Source: Clostridia bacterium (GTDB taxonomy: Bacteria; Bacillota; Clostridia; UMGS1883; UMGS1540). From it: a stretch of DNA of 59,982 nt. Below, piece after piece: positions 19,488-34,751 of the stretch. A program made the position numbers and the translations under genes. The stretch spans positions 1 to 59,982 of the forward strand of contig JAZROH010000122.1 of assembly GCA_045648645.1 (NCBI GenBank), in the 5' to 3' direction. How positions within the stretch are numbered: position 1 is the first letter of the stretch; each line of letters begins with the position of its first letter. The notes under the pieces were generated by a model that was not told where the DNA came from, did not search any database, and saw only the letters and a program-made list of their open reading frames with translations.

Positions 19488-19493
19488 CAAAGA

Positions 19494-19731
19494 AAAGCAA
19501 TGAATGGGAGAGTAGGCAGAAGGTACCTTTCCGAGAGAAAAAACGCCGTCGGCTGGAAGCGTTTTAAGGGGAAATCTGCTGAAGTTCACCCGGGAGCTGC
19601 GCTTTTGAACAGGCAGTAGAGAGCGCCGCGTAAGACACGTTACGTCTTAATGAAGTGCCCGCCATAGGCGGGAATTAGGGTGGTACCGCGATGTCAAGTC
19701 GTCCCTATCGATGGATAGGGACGACTTTTTG
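19494..19731 (+). promoter_or_regulatory. T-box riboswitch leader, Phe specifier (UUC)
   Basis: T-box sequence AATTAGGGTGGTACCGCG lies at 19673-19690. The terminator GTCGTCCCTATC/GATAGGGACGAC plus a T-run lies at 19698-19731. The specifier candidate UUC-A is at 19585-19588 and pheS is downstream. Confidence 0.9.
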
Positions 19732-19750: not shown

Positions 19751-20782
19751 ATGAGAGAAAAAATCGAACAGATGCGGCAAGCGATTTCCAACACATTGTG
19801 TGAGGGACTCGGGCGCGAAGGCTTTTCGAAGCTTCGCGAAAAATATTTAAGCCGTGCAGGCGAAATTCCGGGGCTTATGAAGGAAATGAAGAATATTCCC
19901 AAGGAAGAAAGACCGGAATTCGGTAAAATCGTTAACGAATTCAAGCAATGGGCAGAAAGCCGTTTTGACGAGGTGGAGGAAGCCCTTCGCAAAGCAGAGC
20001 TGGCAGCTAAAAATGCAAGCGAAGCCGTGGACGTAACCATGCCGGCAGAAAAAAACGAAATTGGTGCACTTCATCCCGTATCCCTTGTTAAAAGTGAAAT
20101 TATTTCCATTTTCCAAGGCATGGGCTTTGATGTATTTGAAGGGCCGGAAATTGAGACGGATTATTACAACTTCACGGCACTGAACGTACCGGAGGACCAT
20201 CCGGCACGTGCCGAACAGGATACTTTCTATATCACGGAAAACATTTTGCTCCGTACCCAGACTTCGCCGGGGCAGATTCGAACCATGGAAGTTAAAAAAC
20301 CGCCGATTAAGGTGCTCAGCCCCGGCAGAGTGTTCCGTTCGGACTATGATGCAACCCATTCGCCCATGTTCCATCAGATGGAGGGGTTGGTTGTAGATAA
20401 AAACATTTCGGTTTGTGACCTTTATGGGATGCTCGACCTGCTTGCGAAAAAAATCTTTTCCGACGATACAAAAACAAGACTTCGTCCGTCCTTCTTCCCC
20501 TTTACAGAGCCGAGTGTTGAAGTGGATGTTACCTGCTGCGAATGCGGCGGTACGGGCTGCAAGCTTTGCAAAGGAACAGGCTGGATTGAGGTGCTTGGCG
20601 GCGGAATTGTAAACCGGGTTGTGCTGGAAAACTGCGGAATTGACCCGGAAGAATATTCGGGACTGGCATTCGGTATCGGTATAGACAGAATTGCCATGCT
20701 GAAATATGGCATTAACAACATTCATATTCTGTTTGATAACGATATTCGTACGCTTCGGCAGTTTCGGATGACGCAGAGATAA
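19751..20782 (+). CDS. pheS: phenylalanine--tRNA ligase alpha subunit
   Basis: 343 aa. Class II motifs (FRSDYDATHSPMFHQMEG, GLAFGIGIDR). Confidence 0.95.
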   Translation: MREKIEQMRQAISNTLCEGLGREGFSKLREKYLSRAGEIPGLMKEMKNIPKEERPEFGKIVNEFKQWAESRFDEVEEALRKAELAAKNASEAVDVTMPAEKNEIGALHPVSLVKSEIISIFQGMGFDVFEGPEIETDYYNFTALNVPEDHPARAEQDTFYITENILLRTQTSPGQIRTMEVKKPPIKVLSPGRVFRSDYDATHSPMFHQMEGLVVDKNISVCDLYGMLDLLAKKIFSDDTKTRLRPSFFPFTEPSVEVDVTCCECGGTGCKLCKGTGWIEVLGGGIVNRVVLENCGIDPEEYSGLAFGIGIDRIAMLKYGINNIHILFDNDIRTLRQFRMTQR

Positions 20783-20796
20783 GGGGGTAGAGAAAG

Positions 20797-23193
20797 ATGA
20801 AAGCACCACTTGGTTGGCTTAGGGATTATGTAGATATAGATATACCGGTAGAGGAGCTTAAGGAAAAGCTTTTCTCCAGCGGTTTCGAGGTAGAAGAGGT
20901 TATATACCTTGGAGAAGAGATTACAAAATGTGTAGTCGGACAGATTACGCATATTGAAAAGCATCAGGATTCCGACCATTTGCAGATTTGCCGTCTTGAC
21001 TGCGGCGAAGAATGGGGACGGGATATTCAGATTGTAACGGGGGCAGACAACGTTTTTGTCGGTGCTAAGGTTCCGGTAGCACTTGACGGCTCCACCCTTG
21101 CCGGCGGCATTAAAATTAAAAAAGGAAAGCTTCGCGGCGTAGAGTCCTTCGGTATGCTTTGCTCCGGTGAGGAACTCGGCATAAACGAAAATTGGTATGA
21201 AGGCGCAGAGGTTTACGGGATTTTAATTTTAGAGGACACAGCCCCGATTGGAGAAGATATTCGAAAAATCGTGGGTCTGGATGAATATGTATTTGATATT
21301 TCCATCACGGCAAACCGCCCCGACTGTCAGTCCATCCTCGGCATGGCAAGAGAAATTGCGGCAATTTTGAAAAAGCCTGTGAAAATGCCGGATATGTCTT
21401 TTGTGGCGCATAAGGAAGCAAACGATGACGGACTTCGGGTTTCGGTAGAGGCGCAAGACCTTTGTCCCCGCTATATTGCCCATTACGTAAAGGATGTTAA
21501 AATTGAAAAAGCACCGCTTTGGATGCGCAAGCGTCTGGCGATGGTGGGCATTAATGCCATCAGTAACATTGTAGACATTACAAACTTTATTTTGATGGAG
21601 CTTGGTCAGCCGATGCACGCGTTTGACCTTTCCGATCTCGGTGGAAAGACGATTGACGTAAGGCGCGCTAAAAACGGAGAAAAGATAACAACACTCGACG
21701 AAAAAGAGTTTACCTTAAATGAAAATAATCTTGTGATTTGTGACGCTGCAAGACCCGTTGCCCTGGCAGGCATTATGGGTGGTCTTAACAGCGAAATTAA
21801 GGCTACAACAAAGGACGTTGTATTTGAATCCGCCAAATTTGCAAGGGATAGTGTAAGAAAGACCTCAAGAAGCCTTGGGCAGTCTTCGGATTCCAGTGCA
21901 AAGTTCTGCAAGGGTGTGGATGAATACACAACGCAGTGTGCCATGAAGCGCGCACTCCATCTTATAGAAGAGCTTGCCTGCGGTACCGTTTCGGAAACCG
22001 GATATGAAATTGCGGCAAAAGAAATTAAACCTGCCGTTATCAAAACCACCTTTGCAAAAATCAATAAGGTTTTGGGCATCACAGTGCCGAATGATACGAT
22101 TGCCGAAATTTTAAAGAGCCTTGAATTTAAGGTGGACGTGGATGGGGAAACCATTACCGCCGAAGCGCCCCCTTACCGCGAAGACGTATTCGGGTACGAG
22201 GATTTGGCAGAGGAAGTAATTCGGCTTTACGGTTACTCGCACATTACCCCGCAGCTTCTGCCCTTTGCCGCAGTCACCAACGGCGGACTTACGGAAGAAC
22301 AGAAAATGGAGCTTAAGGCGAAAAATGCACTTGTAAAGCAAGGCGCGTTTGAGGCTGTGACCTTCAGCTTTTATTCCGTAAAGGAACTGGATATGCTGCG
22401 CCTTGCGGCAGACAGTCCGCTTCGGAATGCAATCCGGATAGATAATCCTATAAGCGAAAATTATTCCATTATGTGCACAACCCTCGTTCCGAACATCATA
22501 AATATTATGGTGAAAAACTTTAAAAACGGAAACGATGCCGGAAGATTTTTTGAGCTTGCCAATGTGTATATCGCAGATGCATTCCCGCTTACAAAATTGC
22601 CTGCAGAAAATAAGACAATTGTGGTAGGCGCGTATGGCGACAAAGAAGACTTCTTCAAGGTAAAGGGTATTGTGGAAGGCATTGCAGATGAATTCGGGCT
22701 GACATTTACTTATCAAAAAGCGGAAAAATCCTTCCTCCATCCCGGCATTACGGCGGAGATTCTTTGCGGCGGGGAAGTGATTGGATATATCGGCAAGCTT
22801 TCGTATGAGGTATGCGAGGAAATTTCGCTTGCAAAGGATGCTTTTGTTGCCGAAATTAACTATGAAGCACTTAAGAAGAATTTTAAAAGCACGATGAAGT
22901 ATGCGCCCCTGCCGAAGTTCCCCGATGTGGTGCGTGACTTTGCCTTTGTTTGCGATGAAGCGCTTACTTGCGGCGAAATTGAAGGGGTTATCCGTGCCGC
23001 CTGCAAAAATGTGGTCAGCATACAGCTTTTCGATATTTTTAGAGGTAAGCAAATCGGAGAAGGGAAAAAGAGCATGGCATATACGGTAACGTTCCGTGCG
23101 CAGGACAAACAGCTCGGGGATGAAGCCGTAACACGTATGACAGATAAAATTCTGAAAAACATGGAAAAGGAGTTAGGCGTTGTACTGCGCTAA
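20797..23193 (+). CDS. pheT: phenylalanine--tRNA ligase beta subunit
   Basis: 798 aa. It starts MKAPLGWLRDYVDI and has the tRNA-binding, B3/4, B5 and FDX-ACB layout. Confidence 0.95.
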   Translation: MKAPLGWLRDYVDIDIPVEELKEKLFSSGFEVEEVIYLGEEITKCVVGQITHIEKHQDSDHLQICRLDCGEEWGRDIQIVTGADNVFVGAKVPVALDGSTLAGGIKIKKGKLRGVESFGMLCSGEELGINENWYEGAEVYGILILEDTAPIGEDIRKIVGLDEYVFDISITANRPDCQSILGMAREIAAILKKPVKMPDMSFVAHKEANDDGLRVSVEAQDLCPRYIAHYVKDVKIEKAPLWMRKRLAMVGINAISNIVDITNFILMELGQPMHAFDLSDLGGKTIDVRRAKNGEKITTLDEKEFTLNENNLVICDAARPVALAGIMGGLNSEIKATTKDVVFESAKFARDSVRKTSRSLGQSSDSSAKFCKGVDEYTTQCAMKRALHLIEELACGTVSETGYEIAAKEIKPAVIKTTFAKINKVLGITVPNDTIAEILKSLEFKVDVDGETITAEAPPYREDVFGYEDLAEEVIRLYGYSHITPQLLPFAAVTNGGLTEEQKMELKAKNALVKQGAFEAVTFSFYSVKELDMLRLAADSPLRNAIRIDNPISENYSIMCTTLVPNIINIMVKNFKNGNDAGRFFELANVYIADAFPLTKLPAENKTIVVGAYGDKEDFFKVKGIVEGIADEFGLTFTYQKAEKSFLHPGITAEILCGGEVIGYIGKLSYEVCEEISLAKDAFVAEINYEALKKNFKSTMKYAPLPKFPDVVRDFAFVCDEALTCGEIEGVIRAACKNVVSIQLFDIFRGKQIGEGKKSMAYTVTFRAQDKQLGDEAVTRMTDKILKNMEKELGVVLR

Positions 23194-28837: not shown

Positions 28838-28866
28838 TTGACAAAACAGGCGAAAACGGGTATACT
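28838..28866 (+). promoter_or_regulatory. promoter of the second T-box leader
   Basis: TTGACA, 17 nt, TATACT. Confidence 0.55.
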
Positions 28867-28872
28867 ATAATA

Positions 28873-29155
28873 AATTAATATGGATAAAGGCAATGAAGAG
28901 AAGGAGTACCTGTCATGGAACCCTATAGAGAGAAGCGGATGGTGGAAGCGCTTTGGCGGAAGGGCAGGGAAGTAGTCTTGGAGCTGCGGACCGAAAAGAG
29001 CAATCTTGCTTTGAGTAGACTTCGACGGAAATTCCAACCGTAAAAATGGGAAACGGCATACATGTGCCGATTGAGGTTTGTCGCGTGAGCGGCAGATGAA
29101 TTTAGGTGGTACCACGAGTCATTCGTCCTAAACGCAGGGTGAATGACTTTTTTGT
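28873..29155 (+). promoter_or_regulatory. T-box riboswitch leader, probable Val specifier
   Basis: T-box sequence AATTTAGGTGGTACCACG lies at 29099-29116. The terminator AGTCATTC/GAATGACT plus a T-run lies at 29117-29153. GUA/GUC codons sit at 28972-28977 in the specifier region. valS is the second gene downstream. Confidence 0.85.
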
Positions 29156-29176
29156 TTGCAGGAAAGGATGATACGA

Positions 29177-30808
29177 ATGGAACTTTTAACGAGGTTCGTA
29201 AAAAAGACTGAATTTGAAAGTTACGAGGATTTTAAGGCGAATTTTCGTCTGGATGTGCCGGAAAAATTTGAATTTGCCCGGGATGTTGTAGATGCATGGG
29301 CAGAGCTGGAGCCGGAAAAACGGGCACTTGTCTATTGTAATGACGAAGGGGTTGCCCGTACCTTTACCTTTTCCGATATTTCTGTGCTTTCCAAGAAGGC
29401 GGCAACATATTTTACGCAGATGGGCATTCGCCGCGGCGATAAGGTGCTGACGCTTCTGCGCCGCAGATATGAATATTGGATTTGCGCGGTGGCACTGCAT
29501 AGAATCGGCGCAGTCTTAATTCCCGCATCCATTCAGCTCCGTGCAAAGGATATTGATTATCGCTTAAATCAGGCAGATGCAAAATGCGTAATTGCCGTAA
29601 AGGATGATTTTGTATGCCAGCAGGTAGCATCTCTTCGGACAAAGTGTATGGTTATTTTTGCCGGGGACGAGCCTGTGGAGGGGTATCCGTATTTTAATGC
29701 AGAATACGAAAACTGTGCGCTGTATGAGGAGCCGGACGAAGGCACGAATGCGGACCAGATGCTTCTGTATTTTACTTCCGGTACCACAGGATATCCGAAA
29801 ATGGCGGTGCATAACCGTACGTATCCTTTGGGGCATATCATGACAGCGAAATATATGCAGTGCGTCCAGAATAACGGGTTGCATCTTACCCAGTCCGACA
29901 GCGGTTGGGCAAAGTTTGGATGGGGGAATATTTACGGGCAGTGGATTTGCGGCAGTGCCATTTTAGGCTATGACCCCATTCGGTTTAGCCCTGAGCAGCT
30001 TATGGAACACATGAAGGAATTTAAACCTACCTCCTTGTGCATCCCGCCCACCATGTACCGTTTCCTTTTAAAGGCAGGGGTGCAGAGAGAACATCTTGCA
30101 TCTATCAAGTGGTTTGCCACAGCGGGAGAGCCCTTAAGCGGGGAGGTCAACAGTGCGTTTTACGACCTTTGCGGGCATTATATTCATGAGGGCTACGGAC
30201 AGAGTGAAGGGACGCCCATTACCTGCTCCTTCCAGTGGCTTGGTATTCGTCCTTCGTCTATGGGAAGACCTTCACCACTTTATGATGTTGCCCTTATTGA
30301 TAAGGACGGCAACCGCTGTGCGGTAGGCGATGAAGGCGAAGTTGTTATGTTTGTGAAGGACGGCAAACAGGTTGGTCTTTTGGATTATTACTATCAGGAC
30401 GGCGAAAAAATCAATCCGATTGAAAATGGTATCTACCATACCGGCGATATTGCCTATGAGGATGAAGACGGGTACTACTGGTATGTGGGACGAAATGACG
30501 ATATGATTAAATGCTCAGGCTATCGCATCGGCCCGTTTGAAATTGAAAGCGTACTCAATACACACGAGGCGGTTAAGGAATGCGCAATCGTGGGAAGACC
30601 TGATGAAATTCGCGGACAAATTGTTTGCGCGGTAGTTGTGTTGGCACCGGGCTTTGAGCCTTCCGACGCCCTTACCAAGGAACTGCAGGATTATGTAAAG
30701 AAGCTGACGGCACCGTATAAATATCCCCGTAAAATTGAATATGTTTCGGAACTTCCCAAAACAACCTCGGGGAAAATAACACGGAATGCCTTAAGAACAG
30801 ATAAATAG
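29177..30808 (+). CDS. AMP-forming acyl-CoA synthetase (medium/short-chain, ACSM-like)
   Basis: The AMP-binding motif [11 protein letters not shown] and C-terminal SGKITR are present. ATG 29177 follows GGAAAGGA, and ATG 29168 is an alternative start. Confidence 0.85.
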
Positions 30809-30822
30809 AAAGGATTTTGAAA

Positions 30823-33438
30823 ATGAAAAACATTGATAAAACCTACGAACCGCAAACTGTAGAAAAAAAGCTTTATAAAAAGTGGCAGGATAACGGCTAT
30901 TTCAAGGCTTCACCCGATAAGAACAAGAAACCCTTCTGTATCGTAATTCCCCCTCCCAATGTAACGGGACAGCTGCATATGGGACATGCACTGGACGAAA
31001 CGCTGCAGGATATTTTAATCCGTTGGCGCAGAATGCAGGGATATAGTGCCCTGTGGGTGCCGGGAACAGACCATGCGGGGATTGCTACGCAGATTAAGGT
31101 AGAAGAACACCTTCGCAAAACCGAGGGGCTGACCCGTCATGACCTTGGGAGAGAAAAGTTCCTCGAAAGAGTATGGGACTGGAAAAACCAATATGGTGAC
31201 CGCATTATTAACCAGCTGAAAAGCTTGGGAAGCTCCTGCGATTGGTCCAGAGAACGCTTTACCATGGACGAAGGCTGCTCTCGTGCAGTCCGCGAGGTGT
31301 TTGTACGTCTGTATGAAAAAGGGCTGATTTATAAAGGAAACCGCATTATTAACTGGTGCCCGCAGTGTCGCACGGCGCTTTCCGATGCAGAGGTGGAATA
31401 TAGTGAACAGGGCGGACATTTCTGGCATATCCGTTACCCCATCAAGGGTGAGAACGGTTTTGTGGAAATTGCCACAACACGTCCCGAAACGCTTCTTGGC
31501 GATACGGCGGTAGCTGTAAATCCCGAGGATGAACGGTTTAAAGATTTGGTCGGAAAGACCTTGATTCTCCCGCTTGTGGGTCGTGAAATCCCCATTGTTG
31601 CCGACGAATACGTAGATAAGGAGTTTGGTACGGGTGCCGTTAAGATTACACCTGCCCATGACCCCAACGACTTTGAGGTCGGTCAGCGCCATAACCTCGA
31701 ACAAATCCGCATTATGGACGATGATGCTAAAATTTCCTTTGATTGCAAATATAAAGGCATGGACCGCTATGAAGCAAGACGTGCCATGGTGGAGGACCTT
31801 GAAAAAGAAGGTCTGCTTATAAAGACAGTAGACCACAGCCACAATGTAGGTGCCTGCTATCGCTGTGGCACTACGGTAGAACCGCTTACAAGTGAACAGT
31901 GGTTTGTAAAAATGGAGCCGCTTGCAAAAGAGGCAATGCGCGTTGTTAAAGACGGCACGATTGAATTCATTCCGGGACGTTTCTCGAAAACGTACATGAA
32001 CTGGATGGAAAATGTGCATGATTGGTGTATTTCCCGTCAGCTTTGGTGGGGACACCGTATTCCGGCGTTCTACTGCGAAGAATGCGGTAAAATGGTTGTT
32101 TCCCGCGAGGATGTGGAAACATGTGCTTGTGGCGGTAAAATGCGGCAGGAGGACGATGTTCTGGATACATGGTTCAGTTCCGCCCTTTGGCCGTTCTCAA
32201 CGCTCGGTTGGCCCGATAAGACGGAGGAACTTGACTATTATTATCCCACAAGTGTGCTTGTAACGGGGTATGACATTATCTTCTTCTGGGTTTCCCGCAT
32301 GATTTTTTCAGGTATGGAACACATGGGCAAGGAGCCCTTTAAGCATGTATTCCTGCACGGGCTTGTGCGTGACGGGCAGGGCAGAAAGATGTCCAAGTCC
32401 CTCGGTAATGGTATTGACCCCCTCGAGGTTATTGAGGAATACGGTGCGGATGCACTTCGCTTTACGCTTGCTACCGGCAATTCGCCCGGTAATGATATGC
32501 GCTTCTACATGGAAAGAGTAGAGGCAAGCCGTAACTTTGCCAATAAGCTTTGGAATGCGGCACGCTTTGTTATGATGAATTTGGATATTGACAAAGTAAC
32601 GCTTCCGGAAAATCCCCAGATGGAAGACAAATGGATTTTGTCTAAGTACAATACACTGGTAAAAGAGGTTACGGATAATCTGGAAAACTACGAAATCGGT
32701 ATTGCCCTTGGAAAGGTGTACGACTTTATCTGGGATATATACTGCGATTGGTATATCGAGCTTACAAAGCCGCGCCTTTATGATGAAGCCTGTCCCACAA
32801 GACGGGATGCACAAAATACGCTGTGCTACGTTTTAGCCGGAACGCTGAAGTTGTTGCACCCGTTTATGCCCTTTGTAACCGATGAAATTTATACAGCCCT
32901 TCCCGTAGAGGATGAGAGCATTATGATTTCCGCATGGCCGACCTTTGACGAAGCACTTGCTTTCCCCAAGGATGAGGCGGAAATGGAAATTATCTGTGAT
33001 GCCATTCGCGGCATTCGAAATGCAAGAGCAGAAATGCAGATTCCGCCTTCCAAACGTGCAAGCCTCTATGTGGTAACAGAAAAGGCAGACCTTTTTGCCG
33101 GTAGTGAAGAGTTCTTTAAAAAGCTTGCAGGCGCTTCGGAAGTGGTTGTAAAGGCAGAAAAGGATGCGGCCTGTGAAAAGGCACTCACGGTGGTTGTAGA
33201 AAGCGCCATGCTCTTTATGCCCACAGACCAACTGATTGACAAGGAAAAGGAAATTGCCAGACTCGAAAAAGAAAAGGCAAACCTTGAAAATGAAATTAAA
33301 AGAACGAGCAGCAAGCTTTCCAATCCCGGCTTCCTTGCAAAAGCGCCGGCAAAGCTTGTGGAAGAAGAAAAGGCAAAACAGGCAAAATACGAAGAAATGT
33401 TAGAAAAGGTGTTAGAGGGCATTGAAGCATTCAAATAA
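30823..33438 (+). CDS. valS: valine--tRNA ligase
   Basis: HMGH and KMSKS motifs plus a C-terminal coiled coil. ATG 30823 lies after AGAAAGGA, and the track TTG is at 30817. Confidence 0.95.
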
Positions 33439-34726
33439 TTTCAGCTATAAGGACGCACTTTGCTTTGTACACGGGGCACTGAAGCTCGGGTCAAAGCTTG
33501 GGCTTACGAATATACGGGAGCTTTTAAAGCGCGTTGGTCGTCCGCAGGATAAACTGAAATTCATTCACATTGCAGGTACAAACGGAAAAGGAACGGTTAC
33601 AACCGCACTCGCCGCAGTCTTGACTGCGGCGGGTTTCCGCACGGGTGCATACACATCCCCTTTTGTATATCGCTTTAATGAACGTATGCAAATTGACGGG
33701 GCGGAAATTTCTGATGCCGTTTTTACGCGAAACGCCTATTTGGTAAAGGAGGCCTCGGCGGCAATGGTGGCGGAGGGGCTTGCCCACCCGACGGAGTTTG
33801 AAATTGTAACGGCAATCGGGCTTTTGTGCTTTGCGGAGGAAGGGTGCGAATATGTGGCACTGGAGGTTGGTCTCGGCGGTAGACTCGATGCCACGAATGC
33901 AATCGAAAATCCTGTCTGTACCGCAATTTGTTCCATCGGATATGACCATATGCAATACCTTGGAGATACACTCGAAGAAATTGCAGGAGAAAAGTGCGGC
34001 ATATTAAAAGAGGGTGTGCCCGCGGTGGTGTATAGGGAGCAGCCTAAAGCGGCAATGGCGGTTATTCGCGAAAAATGTGCCGAGAAAAATGCGCCGCTTC
34101 TTCTCTCGGAGGTGCCTAAAGTTTCGGAGAGCACCTACCGCGGGAACCGTTTTTCAACGTCCCGCTACAAGGATTTGTTCTTGCCCCTTGCAGGTACACA
34201 CATGGCAAAAAATGCATGTGTAACGCTTGGGATTATTGACGTATTGCGGGAAAAAGGTGTTTCCATTCCCGACAGTGCGGTGTATGAAGGACTGAAAGCG
34301 GTACGGCATCGGGGAAGACTGGAAACCGTTTCGGAAAATCCCCTATTTATTTTGGACGGGGCACATAATGCTGACGGAATTGATGCCCTTTGTGCCGCTG
34401 TAAAATCCCTTTTTGCAGGGAAAAAGCTTGTGTTTATTACAGGCATGCTTGCCGATAAAGAATATGAAAAGGCAATGGAGAAGACGGCGGGACTTGCAGA
34501 ATGCGTAATTTGTGTCACCGTGCCGTCCCCTCGCGCCCTTTCGGCCTTGGAACTTGCCGAAGCGGCAAAGCCATATCATAAAAAGGTGCAGGCGGCAGAA
34601 AGTATGGACGAAGCCATTCGGGCGGCATACGGCGAAAAACCGGATGTGATTCTTGCCTTCGGTTCGCTTTATATGCTTGCAGATGTACATGCAGCGGTAA
34701 TACGGTTTTTAAACGAGCGGGATTGA
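33422..34726 (+). CDS. folC: folylpolyglutamate synthase / dihydrofolate synthase
   Basis: Mur-ligase P-loop [10 protein letters not shown] and DGAHN are present. The TTG start overlaps the valS end. Confidence 0.9.
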
Positions 34727-34751
34727 CAAAAAATCCCGCTCGTGATATAAT
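34723..34751 (+). promoter_or_regulatory. sigma-A type promoter
   Basis: TTGACA, 17 nt, TATAAT. The -35 sits in the loop of a 10-bp hairpin (34713-34743) and overlaps the folC stop codon. Confidence 0.5.

Follow-up and report, generated by a model that had tools for sequence, protein, structure and literature searches.

A valine-type T-box leader upstream of an acyl-CoA ligase gene suggests tRNA-gated valine supply from isobutyrate in a Clostridia bacterium

Valine-specific T-box leaders precede valS in Firmicutes, for example in Bacillus subtilis, and a leucine T-box controls branched-chain amino acid biosynthesis at the B. subtilis ilv-leu operon. For about 60 years, many anaerobes of the rumen and gut have also been known to require or utilize isobutyrate, 2-methylbutyrate, isovalerate, and phenylacetate to make amino acids. 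The 2-oxoacid:ferredoxin oxidoreductases, including 2-ketoisovalerate:ferredoxin oxidoreductase (VOR), are reversible in principle. Here, we analyzed 59,982 nt of DNA from a Clostridia bacterium (assembly GCA_045648645.1, contig JAZROH010000122.1; the whole stretch is referred to as the window), in which a T-box leader with a valine specifier precedes a gene for an AMP-forming acyl-CoA ligase, followed by valS and folC. We consider it likely that the operon serves the supply of valine under the control of uncharged tRNA-Val, and that valine would be made in this way from salvaged isobutyrate by reductive carboxylation.

Rumen bacteria are described as using isobutyrate, 2-methylbutyrate, and isovalerate as precursors for Val, Ile, and Leu (PMC7356843, citing Allison and co-workers from the 1960s and 1970s). 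The targets given in reviews of T-box regulons are genes for aminoacyl-tRNA synthetases, biosynthesis, and transporters (PMC3766115, PMC2494555). In the main texts of these reviews, whose supplementary tables could list such a ligase, CoA ligases and ferredoxin oxidoreductases are not named as T-box targets (PMC3766115) and the terms CoA, acyl, and ferredoxin do not appear (PMC2494555). Our literature search found no paper on the wiring of a T-box to a CoA ligase or linking it to the reductive carboxylation of isoacids, and none naming the activating enzymes of the isoacid route in Clostridia or explaining its control. The leader RNA described below is an ordinary T-box; the new part is the class of gene controlled and the pathway that this implies.

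The T-box leader and its operon

T-box scores refer to the Rfam covariance model RF00230 (gathering score, 93 bits). The leader matches the full model (positions 1 to 219) at 106.3 bits (E = 1.7e-22), and the promoter, T-box sequence, and terminator that an earlier note had picked out from the letters of this DNA were all recovered (Table 1). The promoter boxes, TTGACA and TATACT/TATAAT, are kept across 13 aligned leaders. The T-box core lies where it had been placed, and the terminator, previously given as 29117-29153, consists of a 14-pair stem (29116-29149) followed by a T-run. The fold of positions 29085-29165 has a predicted energy of -24.1 kcal/mol (z = -2.59 relative to shuffles). In the cmscan alignment, the 5′ arm of the terminator and the 3′ strand of the antiterminator have positions 29116-29130 in common, so the two structures would be mutually exclusive, which is the usual T-box layout. 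The UGGU bulge of the core complements A73 of all three tRNA-Val genes of the source genome. The genome also supplies an internal control, as its tRNA-Trp has G73 and both of its Trp T-boxes have UGGC.

The specifier region GAAGTAGTC (28969-28977) had been read as offering the valine codons GUA and GUC. The assignment to valine and the codon GUA stand, but GUC does not. In the RF00230 register, the region reads GAA-GUA-G-UCUU, with UCUU paired to GAGA on the 5′ side, so that GUC would lie partly inside the helix; the behavior of the triplet in relatives also excludes it. The motif GAAGUAGUCUY is invariant in 13 close leaders, and the specifier triplet is kept or synonymous in 42 aligned leaders. 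GUA is replaced by GUC followed by A, a synonymous valine codon, in loci L068 and L069. Where an extra base follows GAA (GAA-G-GUA-G or GAA-C-GUA-G, in L059/60, L071/72, L081/85, and L123), GUA-G still adjoins the helix, and the helix 3′ of the specifier covaries among leaders (UCUU, UCUC, CCCC, and CCUU). A tRNA-Val(UAC) is encoded in the source genome.

The three genes behind the leader were confirmed by their open reading frames (ORFs) and by domain or family models: the ligase comes first, valS begins 14 nt after the ligase stop, and folC overlaps the end of valS, by 17 nt if it starts at TTG 33422, a provisional choice (the first start codon in frame). Neither a promoter-like nor a terminator-like site was found in the 14-nt gap. 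Between the leader and the folC stop, no plus-strand site has more than 9 of 12 promoter matches, and weak terminator-like hairpins occur at chance level (12 found versus 8.7 ± 3.0 expected). The ligase, valS, and folC are therefore predicted to be transcribed as one message. The folC stop overlaps the −35 box of a second promoter, with which, by its sequence, a new transcription unit begins and the T-box operon ends. Both the folC stop and this −35 box lie within a perfect inverted repeat of 11 bp (34713-34723 and 34733-34743), which no T-run follows and which may act as an operator or as an unusual terminator.

Table 1. Positions of the features described in the text. Positions without a prefix are those of the window; elsewhere, prefixes give the genome (G000, source genome), contig (C), or locus (L).
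Feature	Position	Strand	Detail
Sigma-70-type promoter	28838-28866	+	TTGACA-17 nt-TATACT, 11/12 consensus matches
T-box leader (Stem I, Stem II/IIA-B region, Stem III, antiterminator)	28884-29133	+	RF00230, 106.3 bits
Specifier codon GUA (Val)	28972-28974	+	cmscan register; followed by G 28975 and helix strand UCUU 28976-28979
T-box core AATTTAGGTGGTACCACG	29099-29116	+	UGGU bulge, partner of the tRNA A73-CCA 3′ end
Intrinsic terminator	29116-29158	+	14-pair stem 29116-29149, then T-run TTTTGTTTGC
AMP-forming acyl-CoA ligase	29177-30808	+	543 aa, start ATG; Pfam AMP-binding and AMP-binding_C
valS, valine--tRNA ligase	30823-33438	+	start ATG 30823; NCBIfam NF004349, 1286.5 bits (cutoff, 704)
folC, folylpolyglutamate/dihydrofolate synthase	33422-34726	+	TIGR01499, 351 bits (cutoff, 162.65)
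Consensus promoter of the next unit	34723-34751	+	TTGACA-17-TATAAT with TG, 12/12 matches
Second T-box in the window	19491-19709		specifier UUC-A (Phe), 129.8 bits; precedes pheS 19751-20782 and pheT 20797-23193
Ile T-box before 766-aa HTH_3-Cupin_2-MACS fusion	G000:C100:18342-20970		specifier AUC-A; L009, L005, L021
Leu T-box before 846-aa xylose-isomerase-like TIM (AP_endonuc_2)/AMP-binding fusion, then major facilitator superfamily (MFS) transporter	G000:C74:18647-22829		specifier CUC; L003, L012
Phe T-box before PaaK-like phenylacetate-CoA ligase	G000:C100:14577-16225		specifier UUC; L004; 529 bits, below cutoff of 646
Two Trp T-boxes before trpB-like genes (458 and 411 aa)	G000:C78:41118-41367; G000:C125:6181-6406		specifier UGG
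~220-aa P-loop protein	G000:C77:1068-1736; L146:6593-7267; L144:7221-7880; L147:7767-8456		

The ligase family and its conserved leader

The ligase matches the Pfam families PF00501 (E = 1.7e-54) and PF13193 (7.5e-25). Its best solved relative is MacsMa from Methanosarcina acetivorans (3ETC; E = 1.1e-174, 585 bits, query residues 2 to 540), and further matches include 8BIQ (2.4e-94) and ACSM2A (2.5e-89). On the strength of these alignments, the predicted enzyme is a MACS-type (medium-chain acyl-CoA synthetase) AMP-forming ligase (MacsMa/ACSM-like). By its NCBIfam score, it is related to MbcS without being MbcS itself. MacsMa is described as preferring 2-methylbutyrate (PMC10455477), and MbcS is described as acting selectively on environmental 2-methylbutyrate and isobutyrate (PMC10026030); together, these substrates indicate that the ligase family acts on small alpha-branched acids. 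The earlier proposal of an isobutyrate-activating ligase is thus upheld as far as small branched acids are concerned, and isobutyrate itself is the probable substrate in view of the Val specifier, the family, and the genome context.

The conservation of the leader was assessed in 41 genomes around the source genome (2.14-Mb assembly, 131 contigs, 95.9% complete) and in the best 80 of 426 related ligase loci, with one genome per species. The nearest named records are uncultured Clostridia, Oscillospiraceae, and Acutalibacteraceae metagenome-assembled genomes (MAGs) from ruminant gut, several of them from goat. In a maximum-likelihood tree of 99 MACS ligase rows, from which 10 duplicate loci were left out, the window ligase falls in a clade of 38 rows with a branch support (Shimodaira-Hasegawa-like approximate likelihood ratio test, SH-aLRT) of 100. 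All 38 rows have a T-box core 61 to 219 nt upstream of the ligase and a Val specifier at the expected place (GUA; GUC in two). RF00230 detected the leader at 12/12 close ortholog loci (99.8 to 113.8 bits) and at 20/20 of the more distant clade loci tested; 10 of the latter reached the cutoff, and the other 10 scored 68 to 90.5 bits, below it, as full-length matches with E ≤ 1e-12. For six further rows, the T-box was called from the alignment and motif alone. The retention of the leader in all tested loci of the same ligase clade places the predicted T-box beyond chance. At the protein level, the Val clade is set apart from the other 61 sampled relatives at K73, R109, P284, and T462; MacsMa has K in place of R109, V in place of P284, and Q in place of T462.

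Only 12 rows, which form the innermost subclade, have valS downstream of the ligase; they cover the window's genus and one sister genus. Among the 26 rows without valS downstream, 25 have unrelated or convergent genes there (e.g., rnpA-yidC-jag or a gene for an FAD enzyme), and L075 ends with the ligase and offers no downstream sequence. Three relatives (G024, G015, and G013) have a separately placed valS, and no T-box was found in the ∼1.5 kb examined upstream of any of the three. The window leader, in turn, aligns end to end with the leaders of ligase-only loci. Because the leader is present in 38/38 rows, valS follows in only 12, and separately placed valS genes have a T-box in 0/3 cases, the Val T-box is native to the ligase. 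By this comparison, the conserved unit is the Val T-box plus the ligase, which valS-folC joined recently. The earlier picture of a T-box, ligase, and valS regulon is supported with one correction: the leader is shared, but its native target is the ligase, and the linkage to valS-folC is limited to two genera. Orthologous valS loci carry the ligase in the 12-row subclade and not in the three relatives just named.

Outside the clade, the other 61 tree rows comprise 43 without a T-box, 11 with an Ile (AUC-A) leader, five with a Val leader, one that is unclear, and one without flanking sequence. The five with a Val leader are helix-turn-helix (HTH)-cupin-fused ligases of genus g12. No downstream VOR was found at the other Val-ligase loci; the ORFs of 348 to 353 aa located 3′ of the ligase in L081 and L085 encode repeat/CTERM proteins. 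Two loci carry a second RNA element next to the Val T-box/ligase unit. In L070 (4474-6219), the unit is followed by another T-box (86.2 bits) before a 2-isopropylmalate-synthase-like gene, and in L076 (4348-4549), a cobalamin riboswitch (69.3 bits) lies directly 3′ of the ligase, before a 757-aa ORF that matched no NCBIfam family.

Valine pathway genes and other T-boxes of the genome

No match was found in the source genome for ilvC, ilvD, or the gene for the large subunit of acetolactate synthase (ilvB), in searches that each detected their gene in 14/14 control genomes. ilvC is over the cutoff in 0/9 genomes of the genus and is present in other genera of the order. The 2-ketoisovalerate:ferredoxin oxidoreductase required by the pathway that the earlier note had proposed was found: the N-terminal part of VorB scores 455.8 bits (cutoff, 399), and its C-terminal part is on a second contig, the gene being divided between the ends of contigs C77 and C60. 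VorA- and VorC-like genes, whose best matches are below their cutoffs, follow vorB, and IlvE is encoded on C60 (506.3 bits; cutoff, 307). In G008, a genome of the same genus, a ferredoxin-like gene and a gene for a ∼220-aa protein precede vorB; the source genome has a matching 222-aa ORF and an unannotated 245-nt gap at the expected position of the ferredoxin gene. IorAB and a NifJ-type pyruvate:ferredoxin oxidoreductase (PFOR) are also encoded. VorB is over the cutoff in 22/22 genomes of the family, and in the set of 41 genomes its presence tends to coincide with the absence of ilvC, with both present in four genomes. As leuB and a gene for prephenate dehydratase are present in the source genome, leucine could be made from 2-ketoisovalerate and phenylalanine could be made de novo.

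Two genomes of a sister family link these functions physically. On one strand of G026, a Val T-box comes first, then genes for a fused MACS ligase, a P-loop protein, ferredoxin, and the VOR subunits in the order VorB, VorA, VorC. The G024 string, also on one strand, opens with a TIM-barrel/AMP-binding ligase and IlvE, continues with a P-loop protein, ferredoxin, VorB, VorA, and VorC, and closes with an HTH-cupin protein and a MACS ligase. Because the reaction of an AMP-forming ligase runs toward activation, its placement in one string with VOR and an aminotransferase points to acid assimilation. The P-loop protein (∼220 aa, weak ParA/CbiA matches, no NCBIfam family) is always located just upstream of ferredoxin-VorBAC and could be a maturation or partner factor of VOR.

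The source genome has seven T-boxes, four of which precede adenylate-forming ligases with Val, Ile, Leu, and Phe specifiers. The MACS protein behind the Ile T-box is 48% identical to the window ligase. The fusion of a DNA-binding/ligand-binding module to a CoA ligase, as seen in this 766-aa protein, is unusual; in G024, an ORF of its own (183 aa) encodes the HTH-cupin part, immediately ahead of a MACS gene without the fusion. The Leu specifier is kept, with a covarying helix, in 13/13 orthologous leaders, and two further close orthologs have no T-box. The G024 homolog of this 846-aa fusion protein (56% identical) is the ligase that heads the string with IlvE, the P-loop protein, ferredoxin, and VorBAC.

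The Phe leader of the PaaK-like ligase occurs at 3/30 homologous loci, with no variation among them, and the PaaK-like protein of G026, which belongs to another family, is 94% identical to that of the source genome, which suggests a recent transfer. For this leader, UUC (Phe) is preferred over UCC (Ser) on the basis of the discriminator base: the UGGU bulge fits A73 and does not fit G73, which all four tRNA-Ser genes have. tRNA-Phe and tRNA-Ile genes were not found in the assembly. Of the other three T-boxes, the one before pheST, also in the window, is of the ordinary aminoacyl-tRNA synthetase kind, and the Trp pair precedes genes assigned as trpB-like from their translations only; a role in indole salvage is conceivable for these units and would suit the salvage theme.

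The proposed route, its rivals, and known systems

From the T-box and its Val specifier, the order and spacing of the genes, the conservation of the T-box-ligase pair, and the gene content of the genome, we infer the following cycle. When valine is short, the anticodon of uncharged tRNA-Val(UAC) would pair with the GUA specifier in Stem I, and the free ACCA end of the tRNA would pair with the UGGU bulge of the T-box and stabilize the antiterminator. With the antiterminator held, RNA polymerase would read past the terminator into ligase-valS-folC. The ligase would convert isobutyrate to isobutyryl-CoA (ATP to AMP and PPi), and VorBAC with ferredoxin, encoded elsewhere in the genome, would reductively carboxylate isobutyryl-CoA to 2-ketoisovalerate. 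IlvE would then transaminate 2-ketoisovalerate to valine, which ValRS would load onto tRNA. Since the acetolactate route (ilvB, ilvC, and ilvD) is apparently absent, the isobutyrate route would be the cell's only valine synthesis. The idea of a valine-supply regulon, already put forward in the earlier note, gains support from the GUA specifier, the branched-acid ligase family, the presence of VOR and IlvE, and the failure to find ilvBCD.

The same logic seems to apply to Ile, Leu, and Phe through the three further T-box/ligase pairs. We put forward more tentatively, as an idea that may well prove wrong, that the genus gave up the acetolactate pathway for tRNA-gated salvage of isoacids, with Val, Ile, Leu, and Phe T-boxes each switching on a ligase that feeds VOR or the indolepyruvate:ferredoxin oxidoreductase IorAB (IOR). 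If this were true, the bacterium would depend on the fermentation acids of its neighbors for Val, Ile, Leu, and Phe, and the T-box specifier would be a built-in substrate label across a large family of uncharacterized gut CoA ligases.

The simplest rival holds that the T-box merely regulates valS and that the ligase is a passenger with an unrelated job between leader and synthetase. valS leaders with a Val specifier are the textbook case, and in the window the ligase and valS have a single leader. Nevertheless, this explanation is very improbable, and the comparative data already contradict it: in 26 of the 38 clade rows, the ligase retains its Val T-box with no valS behind it, valS stands without a T-box in three relatives, and the window leader aligns over its whole length with those of ligase-only loci. 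A second explanation keeps the switch and the pathway as proposed but makes the ligase a general branched-acid enzyme, acting on 2-methylbutyrate, isobutyrate, and perhaps other acids, with the Val T-box as one of several inputs to a shared acyl-CoA pool. The substrates described for MacsMa (PMC10455477) and MbcS (PMC10026030) would suit such an enzyme, as would the occurrence of the fused MACS clade under a Val or an Ile T-box depending on lineage. However, the genome keeps two MACS paralogs, 48% identical, one with a Val leader and one with an Ile leader, and the Val-linked clade is monophyletic with 38/38 Val specifiers. Divided labor fits this pattern better than redundancy, and we regard a general enzyme as unlikely.

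In a third scenario, the isobutyryl-CoA made by the ligase would prime the synthesis of iso-even branched-chain fatty acids. A shortage of valine would serve as the signal, as oxidative VOR normally supplies this primer from valine, a reaction that the reversibility of this enzyme allows in principle, and the operon would spare valine and not make it. MbcS has exactly such a role in Staphylococcus (PMC10026030). Against this scenario, which we consider quite improbable, the ligases of relatives lie in one string with VOR and IlvE, pointing to amino acid synthesis; the Phe T-box/PaaK-like unit and IorAB have no lipid-primer logic; and the missing ilvBCD genes create a need for 2-ketoisovalerate.

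Several observations weigh against tRNA-gated salvage of isobutyrate to valine, the route that we favor. On the enzyme side, the best NCBIfam model for the ligase, MbcS (NF047394), scores 400 bits, below its equivalog cutoff of 850; the nearest characterized enzyme, MacsMa, favors 2-methylbutyrate and not isobutyrate (PMC10455477); and the clade-specific residues K73, R109, P284, and T462 could not be placed in the acyl pocket. The HTH-cupin-fused MACS clade has an Ile T-box in some lineages and a Val T-box in g12, so the specifier is not a clean substrate label and is not locked to a ligase clade. On the genome side, VOR and ilvE are unlinked to the ligase in the source genome and neither has a T-box, as none of the seven T-box matches of the genome lies on C77 or C60. 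G016 carries a Val T-box ligase plus ilvC, so genomes lacking the normal valine pathway are not the only carriers of the unit. An assembly in 131 contigs, with vorB itself split over contig ends, makes gene absences short of proof. BrnQ was not found in the source genome, but its one ATP-binding cassette (ABC) permease pair of the BPD_transp_2 type might import valine.

Should the proposed route hold, a T-box at a ligase would supply both a candidate gene and a regulatory signal naming the amino acid served, and the old isoacid pathway would become testable gene by gene. Requirements for isoacids could be explained from genome sequence alone, by the lack of ilvBCD and the presence of the ligase, VOR, and IlvE. 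Acid-CoA ligases would be a new target class for the T-box regulon, with a rule by which hundreds of gut metagenome genes labeled "AMP-binding protein" could be annotated. The question also has a practical side, as ruminants are fed isoacid supplements to support fiber-degrading bacteria.

Compared with the valS T-boxes of Firmicutes, the leader shares the RNA family, a Stem I specifier followed by a purine, the UGGN bulge, the competing antiterminator and terminator, and a regulated valS; it differs in that its first, ancestral target is an acyl-CoA ligase, with valS under the leader in two genera only. As at the B. subtilis ilv-leu operon, uncharged tRNA would turn on the synthesis of its own amino acid, but here the synthesis would start from a salvaged fermentation acid, which would be activated with CoA and then reductively carboxylated at the expense of ferredoxin. 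We know of no RNA control of MacsMa. The window ligase aligns with MacsMa end to end, including both Pfam domains, and departs from it at residues 109, 284, and 462, and MacsMa is described as preferring 2-methylbutyrate (PMC10455477). MbcS of S. aureus, although the best-scoring NCBIfam model (400 versus 850 bits), is described as feeding fatty acid primers and not amino acid synthesis (PMC10026030). The isoacid carboxylation of rumen bacteria (PMC7356843) has the same proposed chemistry and the same habitat, given that the nearest named records are ruminant-gut MAGs; that work is physiological, whereas candidate genes and regulatory wiring are proposed here.

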